A stretch of DNA of 64,000 bases, taken from the NCBI GenBank assembly GCA_025611195.1, contig GCA_025611195.1_4718.1; one strand, given 5' to 3'. Source of the DNA: a phage. How positions within the stretch are numbered: position 1 is the stretch's first letter; each line of letters opens with the position of its first letter. Below the pieces are notes generated by a model. That model did not search any database. It was not told the origin of the DNA and was given only the letters and a program-made list of their open reading frames with translations. Made by a program: the position numbers and the translations under genes. This document shows, piece by piece, positions 1,289 through 60,338 of this stretch.

Positions 1289-1323
1289 CCTTCTCCCCAA
1301 CCCGATGAGGGAAGGGGAGAAGG
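1289..1323. terminator. palindromic hairpin element (CCTTCTCCCC-AACCC-loop-GGGAA-GGGGAGAAGG) between convergent genes; A-run on plus side gives a U-run on the minus transcript
   Basis: perfect inverted repeat read directly; member of conserved hairpin family. Confidence 0.55.
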
Positions 1324-1339
1324 GCTATGCGCTATTTAA

Positions 1340-1618
1340 TTATTTTCGAGAGGTTAACCACGATTCAATTGCGGTGAGGTTGCATTTCAGTTCACGCCAA
1401 CTAGGGTGTGGTGGGATCACAGCACCTTTGTCGATTACGGTTAGCTGAACCTGGTACTTCTGTTGCATACGCGCTACCGTATCGCTTACCGAGAGGAAAA
1501 GCTGGTAACGTTCGTACGCTGTCAGTTCGCGGTCCTGATAAACCGCGTAGGTGGCTAACGTAACTTCGCGTAAGTCCTTTGCGTCTACAGAGACGGTGAT
1601 GAGTTTATATTGACTCAT
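1340..1618 (-). CDS. hypothetical protein (92 aa)
   Basis: ORF between two hairpins, co-oriented with downstream genes. Confidence 0.5.
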   Translation of the reverse strand: MSQYKLITVSVDAKDLREVTLATYAVYQDRELTAYERYQLFLSVSDTVARMQQKYQVQLTVIDKGAVIPPHPSWRELKCNLTAIESWLTSRK

Positions 1619-1637
1619 ACGGTTTCCTTATCGACTA

Positions 1638-1660
1638 GGGTATTGCAAACTACAATACCC
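1638..1660 (-). terminator. stem-loop GGGTATTG-loop-CAATACCC downstream of the 852-aa gene
   Basis: 8-bp perfect inverted repeat in the intergenic gap 1619-1680. Confidence 0.4.
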
Positions 1661-1680
1661 GTCATCGGATGATAACTTAA

Positions 1681-4239
1681 TTACTGCTCTTCACGTTCCA
1701 ACAGATACTCGGAAGCGGTAATACCGTTTACCGTACGTACTGCTTTCAGACGAGTATCATCACTCAGAATCACGGTAACAGACTGCAGACCTTTTACTTT
1801 GGTCTCGAAGGTCTTGAATACCTGATCCAGCATACGAGCAATGCTTGGGTTGGTTGCAGCCGATGCGTGAGTGTAACCATTCTGGTTCAGCTTCAGAATC
1901 TTGGCGTTGGTTGGTACACGAAGAACAACATGCGGACGCATTGCGAACACACTGTGGTTAAACCAGTAAGCATCGTTACTATCTTCGTCGGTGACGATGT
2001 CTGGATTAACACGCATGTCTTCGGTAGCCGCGTCTGCCAAACGACGTTCGATTTCGTCAGCATCCAGAGAGCCGTCCTTCTCCAGTTCTGCACGATACTC
2101 ACTCATGGCAACCAGATGACGTTCACGATTCGCTGCAGATTTTTCGTGAGCGGCTTTCAGGTAGTCATGCATGTTGTACAGTTCTGCTATGGAAAGACGA
2201 ATGTTCCACTGACCTTCGCCGTCACGATTGCAGTAGAGACACTTCAGCATGTTGACCCAGGTGTAGTAGCAATTGGAGAACTCATCTTCAATGAACTTTT
2301 GATCCATTTTAAGATCGTGAATCAGCCAACCGGACAGTTCTCCGATATCATCAACGAAGCTAGAGATGGTGGTTTCAGAGAAGTTCTTCGGTACGATACG
2401 TTTGATCAGCTTGTTAACGTCTTTGGTCATGCTATCGTTCAGGAAATGCCAAATACGCAGAGGGATGACGTCACGATACTGTTGCATGATCTGACGATAA
2501 GCTTTGATATCGTCGCTACGACCTTTATCAATAGACAACGCGTCCAGGAATTCATGGATAGCATCCAGCTCTTTGTCGGTATAGGTTCCCAGATAGGAAT
2601 TGACCGTGGCAAGGAATGCTAATGCGTCGTTTTGGTTGACGTCAGTGTTGGTCTGCTGAATGATCGCTACTGCAGCTTTGGTTTCAGCATCCTCAACGCT
2701 TGACGCTGCGATCGCGTCGGTAACAGTAAACAGTTTCATTTCGCGCTGTTCGCCGACAACGATCGGTTCACGTTGAATCGGTTTGTTAAGACTAACGCGA
2801 ACAACTTCTGCTTGCGCGATACGATCCAGTTTTACCATTTCCTGCTCTGCCATACGACGAGCGGTTGGATCTGATTCAAGTTCGATGTATTCCACTTCTT
2901 CCTCCGTGAGGGATGTAATGTCAACAATGGTTTCATGAAGAATTCCGTTTTCGTCGATACGTGCTCGACGAGCGAAGTGTCTGAAGTCATACAACGTTGG
3001 CCAGCGACAATTCGGCGCGTAGTCTTTGGCCTTCAAACGCATCTGCATAAATTCTTCATGTTGAACAACACGACCGTAACGCTTAGCATCTTCGGTCGCA
3101 TCAATTGGATTAACGGTCTTTGTTACCGTAGCGGAACGAGCCGTACGAATGGGTTCCGGTTTAGTCTGCACAGGTTCAGGTTGAACGGATTTCTGTTGTC
3201 CGGCCTTAACATGCCATTCGGGTTCTTCGTACCGTTCAGCAAATTGCTCGGCTGCTGCAAAGATATCATTGATGCCACCAATATCTCCTTCTGGGTTCGT
3301 CGAATATACCCGTGGTTGCGGTGCCTCATAACGCGGCGCTGCGGTAGCAGGTGCGTCATTAACGATAGGATCGTCATCACCAACATCGTACAAACGGTTG
3401 AACGCACAATCCTTCGAATCGATATACGATGGAGCTTGTGGTTGGATAACCGTCGGTCGAGGCTGTGCGCCGTATCCCGGCATTGTTGGAGCCATACCAC
3501 GCATAACTGCCGGGTTAGGTTGGTATTGTGGTTGTGGGTAGGTTCCACCATACGTGGGATATGCGGGCTGTTGCGGTTGACCGTACCCACCGCCAACCAT
3601 CGCATTTGCTTGCGGCCCACGGTAAGTCATCCCCAGTTGCATTACCTGCTGCTTCAGACCACGGGACTTCTGCGCTATTTGCGCTAGACTCCCACTTTTA
3701 TTTAGCTGCGTGTACTTATTCGCGGCTTCCGGGTTAATGCGCGATAATTCAATCGCACGATAATATTCCGGGTATTGATTGGCTTCAAAGAGCCAGGTTA
3801 CGAGGTGATACAGCGCAACTGTGCTCACAGCAGCAGAGACGATCTGGTCGTTGGACGCATTCTGCGGCATCGGGTTGATGTAAGAGAATACGTTCCAACA
3901 ACAGTCTTCAACAAGCGATTCCATCATCATATCGTTATTGGTGTAACGTGCGACGAACTCGGTTTGTATTTTATCCTGTTGGGCGAAGTCTTTCAGGACA
4001 TTGAAGACGGCTTGACGGATTTTGACGATCGTCGCTTCTTGGGTGATGAAGTTATAGTTCTGCTGATATGATGGTTGTTGGTACTGTGGTTGTTGATAGG
4101 TGTTATTCGGGTATGCGCCGTACGGTGGTTGCTGGTACTGTTGCTGGCGAACCTGCTCAGCCGCATAATTAATCGTGCTCGCATAAGGGTTTTCGCTGTA
4201 GCCCATTTGCTGATACATGTTGTTACTGCCATTATACAT
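1681..4239 (-). CDS. large hypothetical protein (852 aa) with Gln/Tyr/Pro-rich low-complexity regions
   Basis: long ORF; N-terminus MYNGSNNMYQQMGYSENPY...YQQPQYQQPSYQQNY and internal GGGYGQPQQPAYPTYGGTYPQPQYQPNP. Confidence 0.7.
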   Translation of the reverse strand: MYNGSNNMYQQMGYSENPYASTINYAAEQVRQQQYQQPPYGAYPNNTYQQPQYQQPSYQQNYNFITQEATIVKIRQAVFNVLKDFAQQDKIQTEFVARYTNNDMMMESLVEDCCWNVFSYINPMPQNASNDQIVSAAVSTVALYHLVTWLFEANQYPEYYRAIELSRINPEAANKYTQLNKSGSLAQIAQKSRGLKQQVMQLGMTYRGPQANAMVGGGYGQPQQPAYPTYGGTYPQPQYQPNPAVMRGMAPTMPGYGAQPRPTVIQPQAPSYIDSKDCAFNRLYDVGDDDPIVNDAPATAAPRYEAPQPRVYSTNPEGDIGGINDIFAAAEQFAERYEEPEWHVKAGQQKSVQPEPVQTKPEPIRTARSATVTKTVNPIDATEDAKRYGRVVQHEEFMQMRLKAKDYAPNCRWPTLYDFRHFARRARIDENGILHETIVDITSLTEEEVEYIELESDPTARRMAEQEMVKLDRIAQAEVVRVSLNKPIQREPIVVGEQREMKLFTVTDAIAASSVEDAETKAAVAIIQQTNTDVNQNDALAFLATVNSYLGTYTDKELDAIHEFLDALSIDKGRSDDIKAYRQIMQQYRDVIPLRIWHFLNDSMTKDVNKLIKRIVPKNFSETTISSFVDDIGELSGWLIHDLKMDQKFIEDEFSNCYYTWVNMLKCLYCNRDGEGQWNIRLSIAELYNMHDYLKAAHEKSAANRERHLVAMSEYRAELEKDGSLDADEIERRLADAATEDMRVNPDIVTDEDSNDAYWFNHSVFAMRPHVVLRVPTNAKILKLNQNGYTHASAATNPSIARMLDQVFKTFETKVKGLQSVTVILSDDTRLKAVRTVNGITASEYLLEREEQ

Positions 4240-4274
4240 TTCTTACGATCCTTTTTATTTTATTCGGTTATGTG

Positions 4275-6071: not shown

Positions 6072-6110
6072 TACTCACTCCTTTCAGAAAGTTGCTTAAG
6101 CAGATTAAAG

Positions 6111-7553: not shown

Positions 7554-7694
7554 CCTCCATCAGATTGAAAACTATCACGCATAATGCATTTCCCTTTTCT
7601 TGTTCTTATCAAGCCGACAGCCGACGGTTTCAGCATCGTCCCTAGCGCGAGAACGACCTTACGTGTTGTCTATGCCTTATTAATCGCAGGCGTC

Positions 7695-7716: not shown

Positions 7717-7755
7717 TCAAATTTTTTCTATTTATAACGATAAACGGCATAGAAA

Positions 7756-7785
7756 CCTCCCCCAACCCTTACGGGCTGAGGGAGG
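7756..7785 (-). terminator. palindromic hairpin element (CCTCCCCC-AACCC-TTAC-GGGCTGA-GGGAGG) downstream of the 740-aa gene
   Basis: inverted repeat; same AACCC...GGGAAGG-type architecture as the other copies. Confidence 0.5.
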
Positions 7786-7884
7786 CTGACTTATGTATCA
7801 CGGTGCCGGATGAATGTCCGGTGCAATGAAACCATCCGCAACGTTGTCGTCAAGAATATCATCCAACGAAGCAGCTACGGTAGT

Positions 7885-10107
7885 TCAGTTAGTCTGAACC
7901 GGCAGCTTGATGTTTTCAGTGTAGACCTTACGCAGGTTCACAACGTTAATCAGACCCAGCAGCGGGCAGTTGTTAACGAAGCGGCAGCGAGGCTGAACCA
8001 TGGTTTCTTTAGAAACCTGACCGTTACGGGTAACCTGAGCAACAGATACCAGTTCCGGTACATACAGGAACATACCGAAGGTCAGCGGATCCGGAGAACC
8101 CTGGATACCACGAGACAGGGTCACGAAGATCTTATCACGCAGCAGGACGTTCGGGTTATCTACAACCACGAAGTTGAAGCTTACACCAACGGTACGGAAA
8201 TCACCATCGGTCTGCAGGAACTGCGGGATGTAGTTGTCGGTTGCTACTACGCAACGCGGTTTCTCATCAGCGTTGGAAGACAGCAGCTGCAGAGCTGGCT
8301 GATAACCAGACTCGGAGTACATGCGATATGCCATCTCACGAATCACGTTCATGATCGCAGCGGACACTTCGGCACGACGTTCTGCAGTGGTGGTACCCTG
8401 AACAGATTTCGCCAGGTCCAGATTGATTTCTTCGAACCACGGACGGATCAGGTAACGACCGAAACCTTCGATCTGGATATCACCGAACTGACGGAAGCGA
8501 GAGGTCGCAACCGCTTTCAGTGCATCTTTGTAGCTGAACAGTTTCTCAACCATCAGGTTGTCGAAACGTGCGTTAGCAGCTTGGATCAGAACGTCCAGGT
8601 CAGCAGCGTTTTCTTCCCAATCCAGCGGACGAGGAATAGAGAACGGAGCCAGCAGGCCGATTGCGTAACGTTCTTGCTTCATGTTGAAGTCAAGGTGTTT
8701 ACCACGTTCACGACGGTTGCTGTTGTTACGGCGAATACGCAGTTCGTAACCAACCAGTTTGAAGCTCAGGTCGTCAGCCAGGTCTTTAAATTCTTGGCTC
8801 TTACGCGGCTGTTCGATGTTGTCCTGATCAACCAGGCGATACAGTTCAGCGTTAGCACCGTTAACACGCAGACCTGCTTTCTCTACGTTGGAAGAACCGT
8901 AAACTTCGATAGCCAGCTGAGCAGCAGATTTCGCATCGATGATGTCCTGCAGCGCTTCAGCTTTCGCGCCTTTAACGTCAACGGTGTTCTCATCAACGAA
9001 GATGGAGTGGGTGTCGAACGCCAGGGTCATTTTGCGGAAGTCGCCTTCCAGGGATTTCTGGAAACCGTTGGTAATCAGACCGGATACGTCGAACGGAACG
9101 TAAGAGGTCTTGCTGTGCTTGGCTGATTTGATTTCCACCAGGATTTTGGTCAGCGTGATCTGAGCATCCAGCGCGTCGGTGTTGTCGCTGTAACCGTTAG
9201 CCAGAATGCTATCGTCTTCAGCGATACCGATCATGTCGATCAGTTTATCAACAGCCAGGTAAGACGTTTTGTAAGTTACGCCTTTGATCTCGATGTCGCG
9301 CGGAGCAACGATAGTTTTGTCAACGAAGTACTGCGCGTTAGCATCGTCAGCACGATAGATCGGATGCAGATCGGTCACGTCGTTGGACAGAACGTCGTTG
9401 TACATGAACGCATCCAGCAGCGGACGACGTACCCAATCAGCCGGAGTACCGTCAGCGTTACGACGCAGGTGGTTGAACACCAGCGGACGACGGAAAGATA
9501 CATCATAACCGATCTGGTTCGGAGCCAGAACGATGGTGTTGTACAGTTCGTTACCCATGCGGCTCAGACGAGAAGCCTTCACGTTGAACACAACGGAGTA
9601 CGGCATCATGTCACGCAGTTCTTTCTGGTCGTAGGACAGCTGAACCAGTTCTTCAGATTCGCAACCGCAGGAATCAGCAGCCATCATGACGAAGTTAGAG
9701 CTGTCAACTTCACGGCCAGACGGAGTGGTGCTGATGTTCATGGAACGTGCTTGTTTAGCATATTCCACCGGGTTGCCATGAGCCAGCATGATCAGTGCTG
9801 CTGCACGAGCCTGCTGTGCGTTCATGGTGAACAGCTGTTCTTCAATACGCTGCTTCTCTTCCGGAGTGGTGGTTTCGAAGCCCAGCATGGACAGAACCGG
9901 TTCTTCTGCTTTACGGATGTCGCTGCTGAAGCTCTTAACATCCATATCGTTAACCAGTTTGTCCATGGATTTGAAATCAACCTTAGAAGCAGATTCCATA
10001 GACAGGAAGGTGTTCTCCAGACCTTTGTCTGCTGGTTTGCTACCATTAGCGGTCAGGAACTGGCGAGTGGCCGCGACCTGTTGGCTAAGAAGGGTTTTAT
10101 CATTCAT
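7885..10107 (-). CDS. abundant protein, candidate major capsid protein of a jumbo phage (740 aa); identity not verifiable from sequence alone
   Basis: strongly biased codon usage (cgt/ctg/gaa/ggt-rich) typical of very highly expressed genes; size fits phiKZ-type MCP; N-terminal LSMESA motif shared with paralog family; hairpin after stop. Confidence 0.7.
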   Translation of the reverse strand: MNDKTLLSQQVAATRQFLTANGSKPADKGLENTFLSMESASKVDFKSMDKLVNDMDVKSFSSDIRKAEEPVLSMLGFETTTPEEKQRIEEQLFTMNAQQARAAALIMLAHGNPVEYAKQARSMNISTTPSGREVDSSNFVMMAADSCGCESEELVQLSYDQKELRDMMPYSVVFNVKASRLSRMGNELYNTIVLAPNQIGYDVSFRRPLVFNHLRRNADGTPADWVRRPLLDAFMYNDVLSNDVTDLHPIYRADDANAQYFVDKTIVAPRDIEIKGVTYKTSYLAVDKLIDMIGIAEDDSILANGYSDNTDALDAQITLTKILVEIKSAKHSKTSYVPFDVSGLITNGFQKSLEGDFRKMTLAFDTHSIFVDENTVDVKGAKAEALQDIIDAKSAAQLAIEVYGSSNVEKAGLRVNGANAELYRLVDQDNIEQPRKSQEFKDLADDLSFKLVGYELRIRRNNSNRRERGKHLDFNMKQERYAIGLLAPFSIPRPLDWEENAADLDVLIQAANARFDNLMVEKLFSYKDALKAVATSRFRQFGDIQIEGFGRYLIRPWFEEINLDLAKSVQGTTTAERRAEVSAAIMNVIREMAYRMYSESGYQPALQLLSSNADEKPRCVVATDNYIPQFLQTDGDFRTVGVSFNFVVVDNPNVLLRDKIFVTLSRGIQGSPDPLTFGMFLYVPELVSVAQVTRNGQVSKETMVQPRCRFVNNCPLLGLINVVNLRKVYTENIKLPVQTN

Positions 10108-12527: not shown

Positions 12528-12553
12528 ACGCAAAAAAAAAAGATTGTACGGTT

Positions 12554-12585
12554 CCCTCCTCCAACCCGTAAGGGAAGGAGGAGGG
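12554..12585. terminator. palindromic hairpin element CCCTCCTCC-AACCC-GTAA-GGGAA-GGAGGAGGG between convergent genes, A10 run on plus side
   Basis: perfect 9-bp stem plus inner CCC/GGG; conserved family. Confidence 0.6.
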
Positions 12586-12600
12586 TTATGACCGCGGTGG

Positions 12601-13405: not shown

Positions 13406-13978
13406 TTAGACGATGAGTGACCAGGTGGTAAGCACACCGCTTGCGAATTCGAGCTTAAGACGTTTACCGATAAGTTGTTGTTGAATCATCTTTTCAGTGA
13501 TACGTCGATCTTGCTGAACCGCTTTATCAAACGCTTCTTTCGCTTCGGCTTGGTAGAAGTTCGTTTCTTCGTTGTCGTCGATCTCTTCGAGAGCGTCATC
13601 GTCGATGTCAGCAAGTTTCACTCGACCGTTTTCATCAGGTTGTTCTGCAGGCTCATTGTCATAAGGCGTGTCTTTTGTTGGTGCGACACGATGATGCAAC
13701 TCGACCTGTGTTAACATGATCTCCATCTCACCATCGATAGGGATGATTTCATCGGCGCAGCCGTTTTCGGTCAGCTCTCGACTTTCCAGTAATGTCGTGG
13801 TGACAGAGAACACCTCTTCAACAGGAACCTCATCATCGTCGATAGTGTTAACCGTATTGCTGGTAACTTCGGCAACGACCATCAAATCGAATGCGTGAGG
13901 ATCACCTGGCATTTTGATTCCTGGAAGTTTGTTGAGGTACCAAGGATCGAGAATCATGATTTCTGGATTAAACATCAT
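13406..13978 (-). CDS. hypothetical acidic protein (190 aa)
   Basis: ORF; Asp/Glu-rich. Confidence 0.55.
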   Translation of the reverse strand: MMFNPEIMILDPWYLNKLPGIKMPGDPHAFDLMVVAEVTSNTVNTIDDDEVPVEEVFSVTTTLLESRELTENGCADEIIPIDGEMEIMLTQVELHHRVAPTKDTPYDNEPAEQPDENGRVKLADIDDDALEEIDDNEETNFYQAEAKEAFDKAVQQDRRITEKMIQQQLIGKRLKLEFASGVLTTWSLIV

Positions 13979-14049
13979 TTTACCTTTCTATGTTAGGTGG
14001 ATTGCGGATAGAAGAATCAATGCATAAACTAATTTAAGTTTGTTAAGGT

Positions 14050-14952
14050 TTACTTAGCCTTTGAGTTATGCGGACTAACATGCTGTTGTACTCGTTGGAT
14101 TGTATCGTAGTACGGGTTAGATTGGTTGAACATGTTGTTGTGTGGGGGATAGCCATATGGCGCATTTTGCCTTGTTGGTGAGAAACCTTGTTGAGAAGGA
14201 CGGTTTGAATTAACCGCGAGTACGTAGTAAACCAAATTTTGACGGTCGAATGTTCCTTCGTTTTTGAAAGTGTCGGCGTAGGCTTTTACCGCTGGAGTGA
14301 GCCTATCACCATCGGCTGTAATAATTGTACCGTCTGGGTAAACTTCCCGAACGACGCACCATGTTCCGATGAGAACATCTTTAGGTGCTGTATTACCATA
14401 TCCGGTTGTAACGGTAAGGTAAGTATCGAACCCTTCAGAACAACAAGGATGACGATAGATGGGTCCTGTCATTTCCGTTCTATCGGTATCGCTACATTGT
14501 TCTATTGAGAGCGATGATGTGTCGGTTTTGAAATTGTCAAATTCTTTCTTTAAGTCGATTACGGGTTCTTTCGTATAGTACTTCTTGATTGCTTTGACGT
14601 AAAGATCAGGAACGGTTGTCAGCAATCCGTTATACCTGATTCTCAGGTTTTCGAGTAATCCAAAGATGCTCGCGCATGCCTGTTCGCGAGGTTTTGTAAG
14701 ATAAGAGATCCCCTCAGGAACGCTGGGATCTTTGAGAAAGAAGATTGCGTTATTGTCGTTGTGCGATGCGTTGAAGAAAACGATTGATTCGATATATACG
14801 GAGCATAGGCTGTCATTGGCGTCGTCAGATAACACCCAGATGCACTCATCGGTCGTCTTGTTTAAAAGTTCTGTTTTGTCGACCAAACGTTGTTTCATTG
14901 CGAGGAAATGTGCCTGTTGTTCAGCAGTTAATTCACGATAAATAGTGGTCAT
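14050..14952 (-). CDS. hypothetical protein (~300 aa), paralog of 15038-15811
   Basis: start at ATG 14952 with AAGGAG SD; C-terminal block HPCCSEGFDTYLTVTTGYGNTAPKDVLIGTWCVVREVYPDGTIITADG matches HPECHTTYDRYLTITGGVAAPSPVDIGEWRMIREIYPDGRIVTFCG in the neighbour. Confidence 0.65.
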   Translation of the reverse strand: MTTIYRELTAEQQAHFLAMKQRLVDKTELLNKTTDECIWVLSDDANDSLCSVYIESIVFFNASHNDNNAIFFLKDPSVPEGISYLTKPREQACASIFGLLENLRIRYNGLLTTVPDLYVKAIKKYYTKEPVIDLKKEFDNFKTDTSSLSIEQCSDTDRTEMTGPIYRHPCCSEGFDTYLTVTTGYGNTAPKDVLIGTWCVVREVYPDGTIITADGDRLTPAVKAYADTFKNEGTFDRQNLVYYVLAVNSNRPSQQGFSPTRQNAPYGYPPHNNMFNQSNPYYDTIQRVQQHVSPHNSKAK

Positions 14953-15037
14953 GTTGGGCTCCTTGATTACGATAAGGATGATTGCGGTTTTGTGGGTTTG
15001 GTAGGGCCCTAAACAAAGGAACCCTACCAATATTAGG

Positions 15038-15811: not shown

Positions 15812-15864
15812 GTTTGTATCCTCGGTTATTAAGAGAAATTTACAGTGATAACAGTAAGCGTTGT

Positions 15865-15888
15865 TATCACCTAGGTAATATAGTCGCG
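15865..15888 (-). promoter_or_regulatory. conserved early-promoter-like motif (minus-strand reading CGCGACTATATTACCTAGGTGATA) followed by 5'-UTR inverted repeat AGTGATAACA...TGTTATCAC (15844-15870)
   Basis: near-identical to motif at 53555-53578; placed between a hairpin and the next gene start. Confidence 0.5.
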
Positions 15889-15924
15889 AAATAAACTGGA
15901 GTAATGCGCTTAAGACAGCATAAA

Positions 15925-15957
15925 CCCCTCTCCCAACCCGTCAGGGAAGGGAGAGGG
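15925..15957 (-). terminator. palindromic hairpin element CCCCTCTCCC-AACCC-GTCA-GGGAA-GGGAGAGGG
   Basis: inverted repeat immediately after stop of 15962-17329. Confidence 0.55.
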
Positions 15958-15961
15958 AATA

Positions 15962-17329
15962 TTAAACGGTTGGACGAACGGTATTGTCTTTTTCTGGTGC
16001 GATCCATAACGTGACCGTACCATGGCATGTCCACTGTGGTTCACGTACAGAAGAACCCGCCATCGTTACAGCGCAATCGGTACGCATGATGACCCCATAT
16101 GCTTCGCAGAGGTTGTTATCCTGCATCCACACAACTTTAGCGGGCATACCGGGATACAACAGATCCATGTTTGCGTATTCCCACACCAACTGCATTGTTC
16201 TACCGCGTAATCCAGCAGTATTGCTTATTTCACGCCATCGGTTATCGGTTACGCGTCCCATCCCTTTCGCCACCTTCACGTTATCGCTACGCTCTTCAGT
16301 TACGTACTCGCTAACGTTTACGGTACGACTGATTATGGTATCGCCCCCCTTTGATAATGTCATCCCCTGACTCATCTGACTTGCCGAAACAAAACGCCCA
16401 CCCGCATTACCTAACAACGAAGCCGCGTTATTGACGTCGCTTACCGACGCCCCTCTCGTACATGCAATTTCCACGTATTTGTCGCGATTGATCCAGGTCT
16501 TGTCCATACCCGGAAACATATCGGCAGGATAGTTGTAAAAGATAGCTGTACGTCGACCGTCAGAGAAACGGGTTTCGTCGTATAAGGGGTAGATATACAG
16601 ATACGGGGATTGATAATAACAACCGACATCTGCTGAATAAATACCAACCTGGTTCTGGATTTTATCTACGAGATCCATCGCATTGGTACCGTGTGGAAGA
16701 ATAAGCAACTTGAATGGGTTGTCGTTATTCGGTGCAACGATATCCACACCCTGCATTTTGAATCCGGTGTCAGCTTCAACCGCAGAAAGTATCTTGCTGA
16801 ATTCAAGGCGCAACACATCCAGCACTTTCGATCCAGTATAGTTCTCACCGGTTTCTGATTGCATGAAGCTTTCAAGAACAGGATCGAACAGTTGAAATTG
16901 AAGATCGACCATTTGTTCGTAGTCTTTCTTCGAAGAATCGGTTGCGGTACGTTCGTCGGTAGCAGACATACGACTGTCTACGGTTGTTAAACAGACCGCC
17001 CGGTAGACATAAGCCTGTGCGGCATCGTCTACGGTTTGGCGTTGTCCGCGCATCAGGCTGTACGCCTGCACGATGATGCGCATTTTAAGTTGTTGTTGGT
17101 ACGGTAGAATGTATTTTCCGTAACTGCCTGGTGGAAACTTTACAGAGATATAAAGTTCATCCCCTGCGTTACGTTCATAGTCTCGATACGTGTGGACTTG
17201 AGTCACTAAAGGAACAGACACCGTCATTGACGGCGTGATTAATTCCGCGGTGACTTTATACGCAACAGCAACAGCTTCCTGCGCAAACGTACCGATATAC
17301 CGTCCTAACGGCGTCTGTTTGTAATCCAT
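15962..17329 (-). CDS. hypothetical protein (455 aa), probable structural-module gene
   Basis: long ORF in tightly packed co-directional block 15962-21178. Confidence 0.7.
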   Translation of the reverse strand: MDYKQTPLGRYIGTFAQEAVAVAYKVTAELITPSMTVSVPLVTQVHTYRDYERNAGDELYISVKFPPGSYGKYILPYQQQLKMRIIVQAYSLMRGQRQTVDDAAQAYVYRAVCLTTVDSRMSATDERTATDSSKKDYEQMVDLQFQLFDPVLESFMQSETGENYTGSKVLDVLRLEFSKILSAVEADTGFKMQGVDIVAPNNDNPFKLLILPHGTNAMDLVDKIQNQVGIYSADVGCYYQSPYLYIYPLYDETRFSDGRRTAIFYNYPADMFPGMDKTWINRDKYVEIACTRGASVSDVNNAASLLGNAGGRFVSASQMSQGMTLSKGGDTIISRTVNVSEYVTEERSDNVKVAKGMGRVTDNRWREISNTAGLRGRTMQLVWEYANMDLLYPGMPAKVVWMQDNNLCEAYGVIMRTDCAVTMAGSSVREPQWTCHGTVTLWIAPEKDNTVRPTV

Positions 17330-21178: not shown

Positions 21179-21228
21179 CGCAGATTCCTGTTTGAAAGAT
21201 AAGATATCACATGATGGTCGACAGCATA

Positions 21229-21251
21229 AAGCCCACCCCGAAGGGCGGGCT
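21229..21251 (-). terminator. hairpin AGCCCACCCC-GAA-GGGCGGGCT downstream of the 1127-aa gene
   Basis: GC-rich inverted repeat in intergenic gap. Confidence 0.45.
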
Positions 21252-21266
21252 GTTTATGCGCACGGA

Positions 21267-27057: not shown

Positions 27058-27163
27058 TTGGGACTCCTACGTAGGAAAATCTTGGCGGGTGATCATGTCC
27101 GCCATTTACCTTCTGAACCGTTGATTCAGAAGTCAAAAGATAACCGGATACCAACGCCATAAA

Positions 27164-27195
27164 CCTTCCTCCAACCCAACAGGGAAGGAGGAAGG
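27164..27195 (-). terminator. palindromic hairpin element CCTTCCTCC-AACCC-AACA-GGGAA-GGAGGAAGG
   Basis: inverted repeat directly after stop of 27206-28495. Confidence 0.55.
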
Positions 27196-27205
27196 GATAT
27201 AGTGG

Positions 27206-29821: not shown

Positions 29822-29869
29822 GTGTTGTCTCCAGTAATGATTCAAAAGATAAACCTGGACGGCATATAA

Positions 29870-29901
29870 CCCTCTCCCAACCCGTAAGGGAAGGGAGAGG
29901 G
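29870..29901 (-). terminator. palindromic hairpin element CCCTCTCCC-AACCC-GTAA-GGGAA-GGGAGAGGG
   Basis: inverted repeat after stop of highly expressed 441-aa gene. Confidence 0.55.
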
Positions 29902-29923
29902 AATATATCAGTCTATTAACTGA

Positions 29924-38126: not shown

Positions 38127-38147
38127 AACAAAATAGCATGAGCATAA

Positions 38148-38179
38148 CCCTCCTCCAACCCAACAGGGAAGGAGGAGGG
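38148..38179. terminator. palindromic hairpin element CCCTCCTCC-AACCC-AACA-GGGAA-GGAGGAGGG between convergent genes
   Basis: identical to copy at 60307-60338. Confidence 0.6.
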
Positions 38180-38188
38180 AATATGTTG

Positions 38189-40981: not shown

Positions 40982-40996
40982 AAAACACTCCGTTGG

Positions 40997-41027
40997 CCTA
41001 GGGGAAGGTTTTCAGCCTTCCCCTAGG
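40997..41027 (-). terminator. hairpin CCTAGGGGAAGG-loop-CCTTCCCCTAGG (12-bp perfect stem)
   Basis: perfect inverted repeat after stop of 41041-43845. Confidence 0.55.
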
Positions 41028-41040
41028 GTTATAAACACAA

Positions 41041-45852: not shown

Positions 45853-47604
45853 ATGAGCGAACAAGAACGAAAACCTAAGAAGAAACTGCTCGGTATTCAA
45901 TGTCGACACATCAGCTATAACGAAGCGAACGATGGTAGTAAGAACGACCTCATGATCGCAAAAGAGATCATGTTCTTCGATGATAATACGCAAGCGACGA
46001 ACCTTCGCTTCTTCGAGAATTACAAACGTCCGTTTTGGGTGACGGTAGAGAGTAAACGCAAGAACAAATATAAAAAGGAAAGCGAGAAGCTCTCGCACGT
46101 GCGACGCTACGATGTCCGTCAAAGTGAGCTGGTTGAAAAGATCAGCTCGGTGCTTTATAAAAGACGTGCTGACGATAACACCCGTTTACAGCAGCTTGCA
46201 CGGAGTCCCTACCTCTATGGCACGGACGTTAGCGCCAGCTGTTATTTAAAAACCCAATACAATACAAAATGGCCGGAATACGTCGATAAATTACCCGCGT
46301 CTATCGCATGTTTCGATATCGAAACCGATGTTGTCCACGGACACGGTAAGATCGTCTGTATGTCTATTACAATGGGATACAATGCGATCCTTTGCTATAC
46401 CAAGGACTTCGTTGGTCATATTCCGAATGCGATTGAGAAAACCCATGAGAAGATTCGATATTACCTGGCCGAACGTCTGAACACCAAAGAAGATCCTCAT
46501 GCGTTCGAAAAATATCAGTACGATGTTCGAATCGTAGAAAGCCCAGCACAAGCGGTCATCCAATGCATGCAGAAGGTTCACGAATGGCAGCCGGATTATC
46601 TCCTTGGCTGGAATATCGCGTTCGATATTCCGCGTATGCTCCAGGCACTGAACGAGGAAGGGTATCGTCCCGAGGATGTTTTCTCCGATCCTCGTGTACC
46701 ACCTAAGTATCGTATTGCTCGCTGGGTACCACCGAAGACCGACAAGGTATCTGCTTCAGGTCGTAAAACCAACCTTACCCTTGAGCAAACCTGGCCGATG
46801 TTTTATACGATGGCCACGTATCAGGTTATGGATGCGATGTGTGGTTATAAGTTCGTTCGTTTAGGAAGACCGGATGAGGGGAGATACTCACTCGATGCGG
46901 TGTTAGAGCGAAATAAATGTCATACGAAATTAAAAGCAATTCCTGGTACAGAGGGGTTCACGGAGCTTGCGTGGCACGAAGAGATGCAAACGAACCATCA
47001 AATCGACTACGGCGTATATAACCTTTGGGATAACCAGGGTATCGAGGCGTTGGACCAGAAAACAAAAGACTATTCGATGACCATCCCTATTCGTTTGGCA
47101 GCATCGGATTTGAAAGATTTCAGTTCTAACCCTAAACGTATCTGCGATAAACTTTTCTTCGTTTATCTTAACCGTGGGGAAGTCATGGGATGCACCGCCG
47201 ACGACATGACCCAGGAAGAAGATAAGTGGGTTATCTCACGAACCGGACATATCGTCACATTGCCATGCGATCTCATGGCGGACAACGGCATCCATCTCTT
47301 CTGGGATATGCCGAACCTGAGAAGTTATATCCGTCTATTCGTTGCAGACCTCGACATTAGCAGTTCATACCCGAATGGGCAGATCCTGTTGAATCTATCC
47401 AGAGCATGTGTTTTTCGTGAGCTCTCACGCATTGAAGGCGTCTCTGACTATCAGTTCAGGAAGTTAGGTATCAACTTTATTACCGGAGGTAAAACGAACG
47501 CTGTAGACTTCTGTAGAATCGTTTATAAAGCACCATCGATGTTCGAACTCTTAGAACATTTCGATGCAACGCGTCCAAAAGGGGAAGCGCGGACCATCGA
47601 ATGA
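45853..47604 (+). CDS. family B DNA polymerase, N-terminal fragment (3'-5' exonuclease domain plus polymerase motif A); polymerase appears split
   Basis: Exo I CFDIETDV, Exo II LLGWNIAFDIPRM, Exo III YNLWD, motif A ADLDISSSYPNG; no motif B/C before the stop. Confidence 0.7.
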   Translation: MSEQERKPKKKLLGIQCRHISYNEANDGSKNDLMIAKEIMFFDDNTQATNLRFFENYKRPFWVTVESKRKNKYKKESEKLSHVRRYDVRQSELVEKISSVLYKRRADDNTRLQQLARSPYLYGTDVSASCYLKTQYNTKWPEYVDKLPASIACFDIETDVVHGHGKIVCMSITMGYNAILCYTKDFVGHIPNAIEKTHEKIRYYLAERLNTKEDPHAFEKYQYDVRIVESPAQAVIQCMQKVHEWQPDYLLGWNIAFDIPRMLQALNEEGYRPEDVFSDPRVPPKYRIARWVPPKTDKVSASGRKTNLTLEQTWPMFYTMATYQVMDAMCGYKFVRLGRPDEGRYSLDAVLERNKCHTKLKAIPGTEGFTELAWHEEMQTNHQIDYGVYNLWDNQGIEALDQKTKDYSMTIPIRLAASDLKDFSSNPKRICDKLFFVYLNRGEVMGCTADDMTQEEDKWVISRTGHIVTLPCDLMADNGIHLFWDMPNLRSYIRLFVADLDISSSYPNGQILLNLSRACVFRELSRIEGVSDYQFRKLGINFITGGKTNAVDFCRIVYKAPSMFELLEHFDATRPKGEARTIE

Positions 47605-47652
47605 ATCAAGTATGTTGATCCTCGTTTAACAAAAAGAAAACGCATGCGAAGC

Positions 47653-47684
47653 CCCTCCCCCTGGCGGAAGCCGGAGGGAGGGGT
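47653..47684. terminator. hairpin CCCCTCCCCC-TGGCGGAAGCCGGA-GGGAGGGG between convergent genes
   Basis: inverted repeat. Confidence 0.5.
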
Positions 47685-47701
47685 GGAAGTTTTATGTGTT
47701 T

Positions 47702-48151
47702 TTAATTATTGTTGATGGGGTTATCGTCCGGCTTATATTCGATGCCGTAGGCGACGTAACGGTCTGTCGTATGGACGACAAGCGAGATGGGGAAATCATA
47801 ATGCGTGGTTTTGTCTCGGACGAGCTGAGTAAAGAGATCCATATAACGTATTAAGTCTTCACTGGTGTAATCAGAAGGGAAGAAGACGTCGATGGTTATT
47901 GAATCTTCATAGAGGCGTATAACCAACTTATCCAGAAGGTCGGCATATTGGTTAGCCGGGGTGACGTCCAGCTCACAGATATCACGATCTCCTTCGTCTC
48001 GTGATACCCACATCATGGTATCCTGTAATGAGGTTTCAAGGATCTCGAAAATGCATTTTGCTGTAAGTTTTAGTTTATTTGTTACGTCATGGTTAGGTGA
48101 ATAATGGTCACGGATGTTTTTCACTGCGTCTTTGATAGAGAAAGTCATCAT
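47702..48151 (-). CDS. small paralog array member P1 (149 aa)
   Basis: AAGGAG SD; C-terminal YDFPISLVV...EYKPDDN motif shared with P6-P9. Confidence 0.65.
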   Translation of the reverse strand: MMTFSIKDAVKNIRDHYSPNHDVTNKLKLTAKCIFEILETSLQDTMMWVSRDEGDRDICELDVTPANQYADLLDKLVIRLYEDSITIDVFFPSDYTSEDLIRYMDLFTQLVRDKTTHYDFPISLVVHTTDRYVAYGIEYKPDDNPINNN

Positions 48152-49128: not shown

Positions 49129-49158
49129 TGTTTCTTTTCCTGTGTAGTCGGTATACAA

Positions 49159-49190
49159 CCCTTCCCCGGCCTGATGGCTAGGGAAGGGGC
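49159..49190 (-). terminator. hairpin CCCTTCCCC-loop-GGGAAGGGG inside the small-paralog array
   Basis: inverted repeat between P4 and P3. Confidence 0.45.
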
Positions 49191-49202
49191 TATGCTACGT
49201 TG

Positions 49203-53013: not shown

Positions 53014-53043
53014 TTAAAAAAATGGTGGGGTTCTCCCCCACCA
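53014..53043 (-). terminator. canonical intrinsic terminator: stem TGGTGGGG/CCCCACCA with U7 tract on minus-strand transcript
   Basis: inverted repeat 53023-53043 plus A7 on plus strand 53016-53022 immediately 3' (minus sense) of hairpin. Confidence 0.6.
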
Positions 53044-53066
53044 AAACGTCAGACACACGCAGAAAA

Positions 53067-53489: not shown

Positions 53490-53554
53490 CTTGACATCCT
53501 CTTATATTGGATTGATTACAGTTATCTTAAATAGGTGATAAGATATCTTGCTCT

Positions 53555-53578
53555 TATCACCTTAGTAATATAGTCGTG
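53555..53578 (-). promoter_or_regulatory. conserved early-promoter-like motif (minus-strand reading CACGACTATATTACTAAGGTGATA) followed by 5'-UTR inverted repeat AGGTGATAAG...CTTATCACCT (53533-53562)
   Basis: near-identical to 15865-15888; sits between hairpin 53618-53660 and start of P11. Confidence 0.5.
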
Positions 53579-53617
53579 AAATAGACTGCGTTAACAAGAA
53601 ATAAAAACAGCATAAAA

Positions 53618-53660
53618 CCTCCTCCCCCATCCTTCAAGAGGACGGTGGGAAGAGGGAGAG
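53618..53660 (-). terminator. degenerate copy of the pyrimidine/purine-arm hairpin element
   Basis: imperfect inverted repeat CCTCCTCCCCCATCC...GGACGGTGGGAAGAGGGAG after stop of 53664-54065. Confidence 0.35.
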
Positions 53661-53663
53661 AGA

Positions 53664-54065: not shown

Positions 54066-54117
54066 GAGGCGCTTTTCCTATTTTTTATTTTCTGCACAGG
54101 ATAAATTCAACGGCATA

Positions 54118-54152
54118 AAGCCCTTCCCTGCCCTTATATGGGGCGGGAAGAG
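54118..54152 (-). terminator. degenerate hairpin element (CCCTTCCCTGCCC-TTATAT-GGGGCGGGAAGAG)
   Basis: imperfect inverted repeat in 215-bp intergenic region. Confidence 0.35.
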
Positions 54153-54280
54153 TTTATGACCGCAATGAGAATCTCTCACGACAAGCTCACGACGATTATC
54201 GCATCACCCCGCGAGTGAGGGAGATCAGGATCACCTCCTACGTCGTAATGACAGCAATCCTGTTAACGTCGCCTTAGGCA

Positions 54281-54919: not shown

Positions 54920-54944
54920 GTCTATTTCCTTTCATTTAACAAGG

Positions 54945-56246
54945 TTAACTAATATAAAGTTCAGGATCGTAAGGCGCTAATGATACACTGGCGTTATGCA
55001 TTGCTTTCATCATAGTGTTCATGAAAACGTTGTTTACACCGGTGATCTCTGCCCCGATCGCGTCTGGGGTTGGAGCCATCGCGTTACCGCAACAGGTAGC
55101 ACAGTATTCCAATGGACCTGCTTTACAGCGCTGAGGATCGCGTAACTTGATGGTTTGTCCTTCCAAGGAAGCGAGTAATTCAGCATCAATAAGTTTAAGC
55201 GCTGCGCCGTCGATCATGTAACGGCCGACAAGTAGCTTATCTTTGATGTGGTCGCGGTTTACCGTGAACAGAATATGTTCTTGGGTGCCGCAGTCGTCCA
55301 TCGTGATTTTAAGGTTCTGTGTTGCGCGTTGTGATTCTTTAGCCGTTTGTCCAGCTAAAGCGGTCAACGCACCACGTGAGAACGAACCAGCACGTGCACT
55401 GTTGTTGTACTCCGCCCAATGGTCGACACGCATCCCTTCAGCCAGGCTGTGTGTGATAACGTTACGTTTACCAGGGTCAACGAAGTCAGCCTCAACCCCC
55501 ATCATGATGTGCGTTTTCTTTCGAGTATTACCGAAACTCTTGCCAGGGTTAATATAGAACCCTTCCGATTCATCGCCCTTAAAGGATTCCTTATCCATTT
55601 TGGTTAGCGTGGCTTCGAGTTTGATCAGTTCTTCAGGCGTGAACTTACCTTCCTCTTGCAAACGCGCTAACTCTTTATCACGATAGGCAATAATATCATC
55701 GTCGACCGTTAACGCTTTATCGCTCATCGATGGCACAATCAAACGGTTGATAGCGGTTAATGCGCTGATATTGTTGGTGAATTTCTTCACTTCGCTTGCG
55801 TATAGCGGGCCAATCGGACGTTCGTTAGGATCGGGTATTCCCTCTTCAGGGTCGTCTGCTACGCGTGGCGCAATCAGTGATTCTAGTGTACCGCTGGTCA
55901 ACCGTCCTGCCTGATATTCAATCTGAATACCGAAAGCATCATAAAGGACGTACATATTGAACAACGCTTCACCGAAGGTTGTGGCGGTTGTGTTCTTAAC
56001 CGACGGTAGATCACCAGGTGCAAGCTCCAACGGCTCCCAGAAATTCAACAAGGGTTTTGTTGGTTCTGTTTCCCATTGGTGTTCTTCACCGTCGATGGTA
56101 ACCGTAACGATGTTACCTTGACGACGTAATTTAGGCTGATACTTCTCAGCACCGCCTTCCGTAAAAGCAAATGCGTCGTTAATCCATTCAAGATAACGGT
56201 AGTGCCCTTCACGCAACGCGTAAAGGAAATAATCACGAGGTGTCAT
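54945..56246 (-). CDS. multisubunit RNA polymerase beta-prime-like fragment (bridge helix to start of trigger loop), 433 aa
   Basis: ARAGSFSRGALTALAGQTAKESQRATQNL resembles bridge helix ([22 protein letters not shown]); LRDPQRCKAGPLEYCATCCGNAMA...DAIGAEITGVNNVFMNTMMKAMH resembles LRSPxTC...CxxCYGxDLA...[24 protein letters not shown] of bacterial RpoC (recalled from memory). Confidence 0.65.
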   Translation of the reverse strand: MTPRDYFLYALREGHYRYLEWINDAFAFTEGGAEKYQPKLRRQGNIVTVTIDGEEHQWETEPTKPLLNFWEPLELAPGDLPSVKNTTATTFGEALFNMYVLYDAFGIQIEYQAGRLTSGTLESLIAPRVADDPEEGIPDPNERPIGPLYASEVKKFTNNISALTAINRLIVPSMSDKALTVDDDIIAYRDKELARLQEEGKFTPEELIKLEATLTKMDKESFKGDESEGFYINPGKSFGNTRKKTHIMMGVEADFVDPGKRNVITHSLAEGMRVDHWAEYNNSARAGSFSRGALTALAGQTAKESQRATQNLKITMDDCGTQEHILFTVNRDHIKDKLLVGRYMIDGAALKLIDAELLASLEGQTIKLRDPQRCKAGPLEYCATCCGNAMAPTPDAIGAEITGVNNVFMNTMMKAMHNASVSLAPYDPELYIS

Positions 56247-56259
56247 GTAACAACTCCTT

Positions 56260-57138: not shown

Positions 57139-57228
57139 TCCGATGCGGTAAATGTCTACTAGCTCTCATAATCTATTGAAGAAACTACCAGCTTACGCCA
57201 ACTTAGATTAATCAGGAGTAACCATCCC

Positions 57229-59357: not shown

Positions 59358-59419
59358 TCGATCCGCGATACGGGTTACACGACGGACAACTTGTTCGTAA
59401 TGATGAAAAAATCTGGGAA

Positions 59420-59779
59420 TTGCTGTTAGCGCGTAAAGGCGACGGTGGCATGAAGCTGAACATCGAAATGGGTATTGCGTACGACACCATGTTTGGCTTG
59501 TACGATCGTGTTAACGACTGGACGCCGCTGAAATGGGTTGCTCAGCATCCCGCTGAAGATCCCTGGGACAGATTAGGGATTAAGCCCTTAATCGAAGATT
59601 ATGTTCGATTCGGTATTAAAGAGTTCATGACGCTGGATGCGTTTTTACAAGCACCGTATCCTTACGCGCAAACGGTACTCAAAATCGCACAAGACGAACT
59701 GCGGAAACGTAGTGCGGTACTGGACGACGATGAGGACAAGTTACGACGAGAAGAAGAACGTTTACGAAACGGAAAATAA
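59420..59779 (+). CDS. ORF in -1 frame relative to 57699-59357: either frameshift extension of that gene or a separate small gene with weak initiation signals
   Basis: annotated start is TTG; first ATG (59450) lacks a good SD; frame is open upstream across the T8 run. Confidence 0.4.
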   Translation: MLLARKGDGGMKLNIEMGIAYDTMFGLYDRVNDWTPLKWVAQHPAEDPWDRLGIKPLIEDYVRFGIKEFMTLDAFLQAPYPYAQTVLKIAQDELRKRSAVLDDDEDKLRREEERLRNGK

Positions 59780-59780
59780 A

Positions 59781-60290
59781 ATGGCGAGATTTACCAGTTT
59801 GATTGGGTTGGATATTTGGGAAACACCGGCTGACGTTCGGGTTATTCCTGTCAACACCGTCGGTGTGATGGGGCGCGGTCTTGCCAAACAGGCAGCAGAT
59901 CGCGTGCCCGGTCTTCTTGAAGCGTACCGTAAGCAGTGTCAAGATGGGTTTAAGGTGGGTGAAGTCGTATCGTATCAGCATGGCGATAACGATCAACTCA
60001 CCTACGTGTTGTTTCCATCAAAATCGGATTGGCGTGAAAGAACACGACGCGAGTATATCGTTAACGGCTTACTGGCGTTAAAAGCATGGTTATTGGAGCT
60101 TCAGTTCGAAAGAGACGGCTTCTCATACCAGCGTCCGGCTGAACCGCTGATTGTCGCAATTCCTCCGGTCGGTTCTGGTTGCGGTAATATCGGTTACGGA
60201 CAATCTGAAACAATCCAGCCTCAATGGGTACGCGCACAAATCAAACAGTATCTTGCCACCGTACCGAACGTTCATTTCTACTTGTTCTAA
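59781..60290 (+). CDS. macro-domain-like protein (putative ADP-ribose binding/hydrolase, TARG1/DarG-like), ~169 aa
   Basis: VIPVNTVGVMGRGLAKQAADRVPG resembles N-x-x-G-x-M-G-x-G-[IL]-A macro signature; LIVAIPPVGSGCGNIGYG...W..V...I resembles the second glycine-rich loop; ATG at 59781 right after upstream stop. Confidence 0.55.
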   Translation: MARFTSLIGLDIWETPADVRVIPVNTVGVMGRGLAKQAADRVPGLLEAYRKQCQDGFKVGEVVSYQHGDNDQLTYVLFPSKSDWRERTRREYIVNGLLALKAWLLELQFERDGFSYQRPAEPLIVAIPPVGSGCGNIGYGQSETIQPQWVRAQIKQYLATVPNVHFYLF

Positions 60291-60306
60291 TGCACAGATA
60301 GCATAA

Positions 60307-60338
60307 CCCTCCTCCAACCCAACAGGGAAGGAGGAGGG
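60307..60338. terminator. palindromic hairpin element CCCTCCTCC-AACCC-AACA-GGGAA-GGAGGAGGG between convergent genes
   Basis: identical to copy at 38148-38179. Confidence 0.6.

Follow-up and report, generated by a model that had tools for sequence, protein, structure and literature searches.

The stretch of phage DNA analysed here, 64,000 nucleotides of contig GCA_025611195.1_4718.1 (assembly GCA_025611195.1; hereafter the window), carries a family of repeated hairpins in the gaps behind its genes, and these hairpins are examined below as candidate transcription terminators. Over a 6-kb stretch, the window shares 95.9% identity with Escherichia phage vB_EcoM_Goslar, and no other phage in the collection searched comes close. 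Goslar is a 237-kb jumbo phage and, because its annotation includes a nuclear shell protein, the tubulin PhuZ and split RNA polymerase beta-like subunits, it is a nucleus-forming chimallivirus. The window phage fits a chimallivirus with multisubunit RNA polymerases of its own, carrying an orthologue of the gp078 RNA polymerase subunit at 54945-56246. Placement of Goslar proteins on the window gave a map of 56 genes, 47 of which are on the - strand. The whole Goslar genome, which is circularly permuted, was used as context, and its wrap-around junction was included in the counts.

The hairpin family

The family comprises seven near-identical bipartite hairpins and about six looser relatives in the window, all intergenic and at gene 3' ends. 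An earlier note on this DNA had proposed a single structured family at gene 3' ends, conserved beyond the needs of a stem, and this proposal holds: hairpins as it described them are present at all 13 places that it listed, and every match to a covariance model is intergenic on the gene map. The membership changes at two points. The hairpin at 40997, taken by that note for a degenerate member, is excluded by its mixed arms (CCTAGGGGAAGG) and its lack of the flanking box T(T)ATGCYGT, and is a separate element, and the site at 21219-21264, which had been overlooked, is added. The members are as follows (canonical, the bipartite form; dG, calculated folding free energy in kcal/mol; E, expectation value in the covariance model search).

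1280..1333 (hairpin 1289-1323), both strands: predicted bidirectional terminator between convergent genes (gp036-like on +, gp037-like on -); arms CCTTCTCCCC/GGGGAGAAGG, inner AACCC-GATGA-GGGAA; TATG on both strands (CATA at 1280-1283, TATG at 1326-1329); dG -27.8 on + and -28.0 on -; E 9e-10
7747..7794, - strand: predicted terminator, lying about 95 nt past the major head protein gene (7885-10107, -); an unbroken stem in - strand RNA, with G.U pairs, CCUCCCUCAGCCC-GUAA-GGGUUGGGGGAGG, then UUUCUAUGCCGU; dG -30.5 on - versus -18.5 on +, the clearest case of sense-strand preference in the window; E 0.0025
12546..12593 (hairpin 12554-12585), no strand assigned: canonical copy between convergent genes (DnaB-like helicase on +, gp044-like on -); box TTATGACCG on the + side only; E 6e-16
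15918..15965 (hairpin 15926-15957), - strand: canonical copy at a tandem -/- junction, right after the stop of gene 15962-17329; sense strand ...GGGAGAGGG-GTTTATGCTGT; E 4e-20
21219..21264, - strand: short member at a tandem junction (21178/21267); GCCCGCCC-TTCG-GGGTGGGC-TTTATGCTGT; dG -26.6 on -; E 0.34
27157..27203 (hairpin 27164-27195), - strand: canonical copy, tandem -/-; sense CCTTCCTCC-TTCCC-TGTT-GGGTT-GGAGGAAGG-TTTATGGCGT; E 1e-17
29862..29909 (hairpin 29870-29901), - strand: canonical copy, tandem -/-; TTATATGCCGT downstream on the sense strand; E 7e-21
38140..38187 (hairpin 38148-38179), both strands: canonical, predicted bidirectional copy between convergent genes (35133-38126 on +, 38189-40981 on -); boxes TTATGCTC on - and AATATGTTGT on +; dG -28.2/-29.3; E 5e-19
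47644..47692, no strand assigned: variant between convergent genes (DNA polymerase on +, 47702-48151 on -); CCCCTCCCCCTGGC-GGAA-GCCGGAGGGAGGGG, with TTTTATGTGT 6 nt downstream on the + strand; dG -31.2/-27.7; E 0.09
49151..49196, - strand: variant at a tandem junction; CCCTTCCCCGGCC-TGAT-GGCTAGGGAAGGG; GCTATGCTAC on the + side, TATA instead of TATG on the - side; E 0.0016
53610..53663, - strand: variant at a tandem junction; dG -28.4 on - versus -22.0 on +; TTTTATGCTGT downstream on the - strand; E 0.003
54113..54160, - strand: variant at a tandem junction; + strand hairpin GCCCTTCCCTGCCC...GGGGCGGGAAG; CTTTATGCCGT downstream on the - strand; E 0.07
60299..60346 (hairpin 60307-60338), both strands: canonical, predicted bidirectional copy between convergent genes (59730-60290 on +, 60356-60730 on -) with boxes on both strands; the Goslar orthologue (93445-93476) carries the annotation 'putative transcriptional terminator', and its arms show a double compensatory change, CCCTCCTCC to CCCTCTCCC; E 7e-19

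Two further hairpins of the window are not members.

40992..41036, - strand: 12-bp mixed-arm hairpin at a tandem junction, CCTAGGGGAAGG-ttttcag-CCTTCCCCTAGG, without a TATG box; probably a generic terminator or 3'-end stabiliser
53023..53060, - strand: classical terminator, GGTGGGG(G)AGAACCCCACC then AU7, with a purine-first arm and no TATG box

The canonical stem consists of a pyrimidine arm of 9-10 bp, an AA/AA or UU/UU internal loop, a CCC/GGG segment and a terminal loop of 4-5 nt. On the - strand, the sense strand of most genes, a canonical copy has the 9-bp arm CCCTCCTCC, CCCTCTCCC or CCTTCCTCC, followed by TT, CCC, a 4-nt loop, GGG, TT and the purine arm. The core AACCCN4GGGAA occurs six times in the window, as against 0.09 expected from shuffles. 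Among the 36 perfect hairpins of the window with arms of at least 8 bp, the 5' arm is all-pyrimidine in nine and all-purine in none; the perfect hairpins of Goslar are pyrimidine-first in about 27 cases and purine-first in four, and a single purine-first one is GC-rich. The copies at 38148 and 60307 are identical, as had been noted before, and the identity extends to their flanks. The loop had also been thought to be conserved; it proves to be the most variable part of the element, reading AACA, GTAA, GTCA, GTGA, AGCA or ATCA at orthologous sites of genomes that are ~96% identical. Beyond what pairing demands, it is the inner stem and the downstream box TATGCYGT that are conserved.

An alignment was made of 37 distinct canonical copies from the window, Goslar and the IMG/VR contigs 3300011560_000001 and 3300045988_173921, both of which are Goslar-like. 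The arms covary: 99.3% of the aligned cells are paired, and double compensatory changes, always from C-G to U-A, occur in five of the 12 pairs, with no one-sided (G.U) changes in any of the 37 copies. The covariation score was reached by 0 of 500 shuffles, and no slid register came near the observed value. The portion CC-TT-CCC...GGG-TT-GG is invariant. The covariance model was made from the canonical copies in four Goslar-like genomes, and the seven canonical window sites, which were among the building set, match it by construction (E<=1e-9). Outside the building set, the model found the sites at 49151 (E 0.0016), 7747 (E 0.0025) and 53610 (E 0.0031), and the looser sites at 54113, 47644 and 21222 scored E 0.07, 0.09 and 0.34. 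A scan of the window with Rfam 15 yielded 0 families at the gathering threshold.

All orthologous sites compared across four related genomes are occupied. The earlier note would have counted absence from orthologous intergenic positions in relatives against its proposal; Goslar and two more genomes like it have an element at these positions, so this objection falls away. At two convergent sites, the centre of the element has turned around. The central 14 nt (AACCCGTAAGGGAA) of the window copy at 12554-12585 are the exact reverse complement of those in the related contig L130 (8898-8929), with arms and flanks unchanged, and the same 14-nt difference separates Goslar 224384 from its counterparts in the contigs L141 and L072. 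This swap is an in situ inversion mediated by the palindrome. Loop and arm variants also seem to have been exchanged between sites, which suggests gene conversion among copies. A fixed strand orientation of the AA/UU internal loop was considered, with AA on the + strand in 13 of 15 Goslar copies, and was rejected on its exceptions: one tandem site has the opposite orientation in all three genomes examined, and the two convergent sites are inverted between relatives. The orientation of the internal loop is therefore no fixed functional feature.

In scans of IMG/VR, a loose pattern gave mostly chance matches, and the canonical form, sought with two tight patterns, turned up in little else than Goslar and two contigs resembling it. 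An identical inner module with the box is also present in three apparently unrelated viral contigs of 30-49 kb (L016 9647-9678, L131 515-546 and L136 3244-3275), where GGCCTCC-TTCCC-GAAA/GGAT-GGGTT-GGAGGCC is followed by TTTTTATGCTG. As these contigs have no detectable protein similarity to Goslar, they were left aside from the family analysis.

Gene junctions and the downstream box

Each gene junction was folded on both strands, and a hairpin was counted at -15 kcal/mol or stronger. In the window, strong hairpins lie at all five convergent junctions and at 14 tandem -/- junctions with gaps of at least 50 nt, and none lies at the tight operon-internal junctions. In Goslar, they occur at 17 of 20 convergent, 58 of 196 tandem -/-, 4 of 11 tandem +/+ and 8 of 20 divergent junctions. 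All 17 convergent hairpins of Goslar are pyrimidine-first, and overall this polarity prevails by 47 to 14 (p=3e-5). The calculated stability of 48-nt windows that include the hairpin is about -25 to -33 kcal/mol.

Of the two strands at tandem junctions, the sense RNA folds more stably in 43 cases and the opposite one in 13 (Wilcoxon p=4e-6), and when the difference is at least 4 kcal, the sense strand is favoured in 16 of 17 cases. Fold stability of convergent hairpins is symmetric between the strands (p=0.5). In the looser copies at tandem junctions, G.U pairs give the sense-strand RNA the better fold. This bias is evidence for selection at the RNA level.

The box T(T)ATGCYGT sits 3' of the hairpin in the direction of the incoming transcript. 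The CATAA and TATG flanks had previously been described as a symmetric frame of the hairpin; their conservation stands, and the symmetry gives way to a directional box on the strand of the incoming gene. Tandem -/- hairpins of Goslar have TATG 0-6 nt past the last G-C pair in 22 of 58 cases on the - strand and in five of 58 on the + strand, as compared with 10 of 17 and 12 of 17, respectively, at convergent hairpins and 0 of 8 on either strand at divergent ones. For the + side, the difference between convergent and tandem junctions is significant (Fisher p=1e-6; chance level 1.4-2.4%). The heuristic used to set the stem boundary is imprecise at some looser hairpins, and the counts 22/58 and 12/17 are therefore conservative; a cruder window method for TATG after the hairpin in Goslar gave 34 of 58 at tandem -/- and 15 of 17 at convergent junctions. 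TATG occurs at divergent junctions at roughly chance frequency, and never beside a hairpin.

The conservation extends past TATG. In a profile anchored on it, the next four positions are C in 29, Y in 43, G in 30 and T in 32 of 53 cases, giving TATGCYGT. Goslar contains 40 copies of TATGCYGT; half of these are in the intergenic 6.7% of the genome, where 18 of the 20 stand directly behind a strong hairpin, as do all six intergenic copies in the window. The box goes with the polarity of the hairpin: 35 of 44 pyrimidine-first hairpins are boxed, versus one of 12 purine-first ones (Fisher p=1e-5).

As had been remarked, most copies have no canonical U-tract. The sense-side flanks (TTATGCTA, TTATATGC, TTTATGGC, GTTTATGC, AATATGTT) lack the U-run of canonical intrinsic terminators, taken here as about four or more consecutive U within 8 nt directly after the stem, and a T-run of at least four is found at only four of 19 pyrimidine-first boxed tandem hairpins in Goslar. 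The 3' arm GGAGGAGGG followed by ATG resembles a ribosome-binding site and start codon, and the boxes were accordingly considered as starts of small or leaderless open reading frames. This reading was discarded: the median open reading frame is 17 codons, and only four of 53 boxes fall at annotated starts.

Likeness to phiKZ-type terminators and rival readings

In phiKZ, 133 termination regions have been mapped by ONT-cappable-seq (Oxford Nanopore cappable sequencing), 61 of which have the motif 5'-BCCYCCCCHWWDGGGRRGGBYTTATKYYGT-3' (Putzeys et al. 2024, PMC10914365). Most of the mapped sites are intergenic or inside the next gene, and bidirectional regions are located between convergent genes (PMC10914365). 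In 201phi2-1, motif A is present at 59 of 132 mapped terminators and is described as strongly resembling the phiKZ motif (PMC11512511). The Goslar-lineage hairpins are like those of both phages in being pyrimidine-first and GC-rich, in standing at gene 3' ends, in being two-sided at convergent genes and in having no long U-run. The sequence features of the phiKZ type are found: a pyrimidine 5' arm (CCYCCCC) and a purine 3' arm (GGGRRGG), a box downstream in the sense direction and a position downstream of genes. The phiKZ box TTATKYYGT and the T(T)ATGCYGT of Goslar-like phages are the same box, and the 30-nt phiKZ consensus matches window 21221-21250 with three mismatches (0 expected). In the first 50 kb of the phiKZ genome, to which the spot comparison was made, GCCCTCCC-loop-GGGAGGGC-ATTATG recurs, with CATAA on the opposite side at two convergent junctions (25214, 34917). 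The two forms differ in that the dominant Goslar-lineage stem is longer and bipartite (9-10 bp, a 2x2 AA/AA or UU/UU internal loop and CCC/GGG), whereas that of phiKZ has 7-8 bp, and in that the loops are variable in the Goslar lineage and TTCG-like in phiKZ.

The same arrangement is seen behind the major capsid gene of several phages. A hairpin followed by T(T)TATGYYGT is present there in the window phage, SL2 (phiKZ-like), 201phi2-1, Ralstonia phage RSF1 and Erwinia phage Simmy50, and a hairpin with an ordinary U-run in SEGD1 (SPN3US-like), PhiEaH1, pVa-21 and Machina. The phiKZ signal, hairpin polarity together with the TTATGYYGT box, is thus kept across very distant chimalliviruses, with a U-run in use at this capsid-gene position in other branches (SPN3US-like, PhiEaH1, pVa-21 and Machina). 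The major-capsid terminator of 201phi2-1 reads GGCCAGTCC-TTCG-GGACTGGC-TTTATGTTGT, and the reported transcript end at 132,419 would be 8 nt past the stem, within TTTATGT[T]GT, if the paper uses GenBank coordinates. In uninfected P. chlororaphis, where the RNA polymerase is that of the host, this terminator was more effective than lambda T0. The earlier note had suggested that a specific factor or polymerase recognises the elements; a need for a dedicated factor or a phage-specific polymerase is not supported.

Since the repeated hairpins agree in polarity and box with the motif that marks mapped transcript 3' ends of phiKZ and 201phi2-1, they are most likely intrinsic transcription terminators of the kind that phiKZ-like nucleus-forming jumbo phages (Chimalliviridae) employ, and often bidirectional. 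Judged from its sequence, the family is the Goslar-lineage form, with an extended bipartite stem, of the terminator motif published in 2024. It is not described in the Goslar genome paper, nor for this lineage in the literature searched, and several of the Goslar orthologues are already annotated 'putative transcriptional terminator'. No Goslar transcript 3'-end data were found in the literature searched, and we infer both that transcripts of this phage end at the hairpins and which polymerase responds to them.

In the proposed mechanism, the nascent RNA would fold a very stable GC-rich hairpin with an all-pyrimidine 5' arm and an all-purine 3' arm, and the T(T)ATGCYGT box directly downstream would take the place of the U-run. 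By analogy with the one mapped 201phi2-1 site, the transcript would end ~8 nt past the stem, within the box. Since the arms are perfect Watson-Crick palindromes, the same DNA would fold on the opposite strand too; a hairpin with boxes on both sides could thereby act as a two-way terminator at convergent pairs, and the sense-side box alone would be retained at tandem junctions. The terminal hairpin probably also protects or stabilises the mRNA 3' end. Canonical Rho-independent terminators likewise end a transcription unit with a GC-rich hairpin, and the palindrome likewise serves both directions at convergent genes; the 3' end of the relative ~8 nt past the stem and the activity of its element with host RNA polymerase also agree with them. 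Unlike those terminators, most copies here have no run of at least four U and carry the TATGCYGT box instead, and their pyrimidine-first polarity is strong.

Several points weigh against termination as the function. The function rests on motif identity with distant relatives, the capsid protein being ~24-32% identical. The box is moderately U-rich, and AAUAUG, which follows the stem on the + strand of canonical convergent copies, makes a poor canonical intrinsic terminator. Canonical copies are perfect palindromes without G.U pairs even at tandem junctions, which would fit a constraint at the DNA level or gene conversion equally well as RNA folding, and the inner CC-TT-CCC/GGG-TT-GG, invariant in the 37 distinct copies, goes beyond the needs of pairing. 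TATG is moreover the core of phiKZ late promoters with +1 at its G, so a role in initiation is possible.

The last of these points underlies an alternative that we consider unlikely, in which the hairpin terminates transcription and the adjoining TATG is a late promoter of the non-virion RNA polymerase, re-initiating as in phiKZ. In phiKZ, TATG is needed for late-promoter activity, +1 is its G and nothing is conserved beyond TATG (Yakunina 2015, PMC4666361); as single-stranded non-template DNA, it is bound by a beta-lobe pocket of GP123, a core beta-like subunit of the non-virion polymerase (PMC12809450). The tetranucleotide and its strand are the same here, a gene is present downstream of the box at tandem junctions, and four of 53 boxes have their ATG annotated as a start codon. 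However, the box is 8-9 nt long, whereas phiKZ late promoters conserve TATG alone, and 18 of 20 intergenic TATGCYGT copies stand behind a hairpin. Instead of lying at start sites upstream of genes, boxes on both strands of convergent junctions face only the antisense of the converging gene, where there is nothing to promote, and at divergent junctions, which must contain promoters, no hairpin has a box on either side (0/8). At window 15882 and 53572 on the - strand, the terminator is separated from the next gene by a distinct promoter-like motif.

Two further readings dispense with termination as the primary role. That the 3' hairpin is mainly an RNA tag, which a phage RNA-binding protein would recognise to stabilise the mRNA or to take it out of the phage nucleus, with termination secondary, is very improbable. 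The stem-loop of histone mRNA offers a loose parallel, the inner stem and internal loop are invariant beyond the needs of pairing, and transcription and translation are kept apart in these phages, whose genomes encode RNA-binding proteins such as ChmC; but enhanced crosslinking and immunoprecipitation of ChmC in PhiPA3 located its binding mainly just 3' of start codons, with no defined motif. As an RNA ligand the element would also be inconstant: the internal loop, AA/AA or UU/UU in the sense RNA, has opposite orientations in related genomes, the loop is hypervariable, and the looser members and the phiKZ form are without the bipartite inner module. Still less credible, to the point of being nearly dismissed, are palindromes spread by copying without a transcription-specific role, either extragenic elements like repetitive extragenic palindromes (REP) or miniature inverted-repeat transposable elements (MITE), or protein-binding sites at the DNA level. 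REP family palindromes have a conserved 5' tetranucleotide. The elements resemble REP and bacterial interspersed mosaic elements as many intergenic copies of an imperfect palindrome at gene 3' ends that can stabilise upstream mRNA; the many near-identical copies, including two identical ones 22 kb apart, the perfect palindrome of the canonical class, the variants of loop and arm swapped between orthologous sites, which suggest gene conversion, and the in situ inversions would all suit such a spread. Yet no REP-type 5' tetranucleotide was noticed in the Goslar-lineage elements, orthologous occupancy is conserved, and none of the marks of a mobile palindrome was seen: no presence/absence polymorphism at the sites compared in four related genomes, no target-site duplications noticed there and no transposase annotated in the Goslar genome tables. 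All copies sit strictly at gene 3' ends; coding DNA has none, and divergent intergenic regions have essentially none. The flanking box takes its direction from the orientation of the genes, and non-canonical members have a sense-strand G.U bias.

Returning to termination, a second class of terminators has a purine-first or mixed hairpin followed by a run of 7-10 U and no TATG box. It is represented at window 53023-53060 (-), where a classical hairpin with U7 had been reported at 53014-53043 and is indeed found, its AU7 on the - strand being a proper U-run, and in Goslar at 24169, 86155 and 108126, of which 86155 is the orthologue of the window site. The two classes could correspond to the two phage polymerases, or else to temporal classes of genes. 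It is conceivable, though we regard it as doubtful, that TATGCYGT is a sequence-specific stop signal read by the phage multisubunit RNA polymerase and not a degenerate U-tract. The non-virion polymerase pocket of phiKZ binds TATG at late promoters, and one pocket could thus serve both start and stop, the box pausing the elongating phage enzyme so that the upstream hairpin can act. In favour of this, the box is kept in both directions at convergent sites even without U after the stem (AAUAUGCUGU, + strand of canonical copies), is tightly coupled to hairpin polarity and is conserved among phages of E. coli, Pseudomonas, Ralstonia and Erwinia. Conversely, a boxed terminator functions with host polymerase, and the single mapped 3' end does not coincide with the G of TATG but is 8 nt beyond the stem. 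The literature searched yielded no in vitro study of termination by these phage polymerases.

As terminators, the elements would provide a ready-made map for Goslar-type phages, a main E. coli model of phage-nucleus biology, delimiting transcription units, with two-way stops at convergent gene pairs and roughly 13 sites in the window and more than 40 in the whole Goslar genome. Given the contrast between box and U-run, and given that the box is placed according to the incoming transcript, what the box does can be tested directly with purified phage polymerases. The elements are also candidates for compact, strong, bidirectional insulators in engineering.

Other features of the window and of Goslar

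Downstream of chmA, at Goslar 170953-170972, lies the sole GC-rich purine-first perfect hairpin of that genome, GGGAGGGAGG-ttgc-CCTCCCTCCC; its sense strand continues with TTATACGTCC, a near-miss of the box.

A promoter-like motif, (A/T-rich)TTTCACGGCTATATTACYTAGGTGA, occurs on the - strand at window 15882 and 53572 and at Goslar 2567, 113797, 142800, 160791, 166069, 172978, 201944 and 226695. The intergenic copies in Goslar are located 39-131 nt upstream of start codons, including that of the nuclear shell gene chmA, and the motif is probably the early (virion polymerase) promoter of the Goslar lineage. Each of the two window copies directly precedes a small hairpin at the predicted transcript 5' end (15845-15870 and 53533-53562).

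The DNA polymerase gene at window 45853-47604 (+) is uninterrupted and encodes 583 aa. Its Goslar counterpart (79690-83200) is interrupted behind codon 499 by ~1.76 kb of inserted DNA that encodes the NUMOD1/HNH endonuclease gp069, and the last 85 codons resume at ~82945; the insert, present in one phage and not in the other, has the look of a mobile intron or an inserted homing endonuclease. Conversely, window 13976-15961 contains two adjacent - strand genes (14050-15030 and 15038-15811) that are absent from Goslar, and this insertion accounts for the ~1.7-kb offset between window and Goslar coordinates. Their products share PIY.HP.C...YL.T.G...G.W...RE.YPDG and are apparent paralogues of each other. 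The genes at 44312-45631 (-) and 27206-28495 (-) have 48% and 76% protein identity to Goslar, versus 95-100% elsewhere, and may be fast-evolving or exchanged modules. The orthologue of Goslar gp067 is noted to be weakly similar to a virion structural protein.

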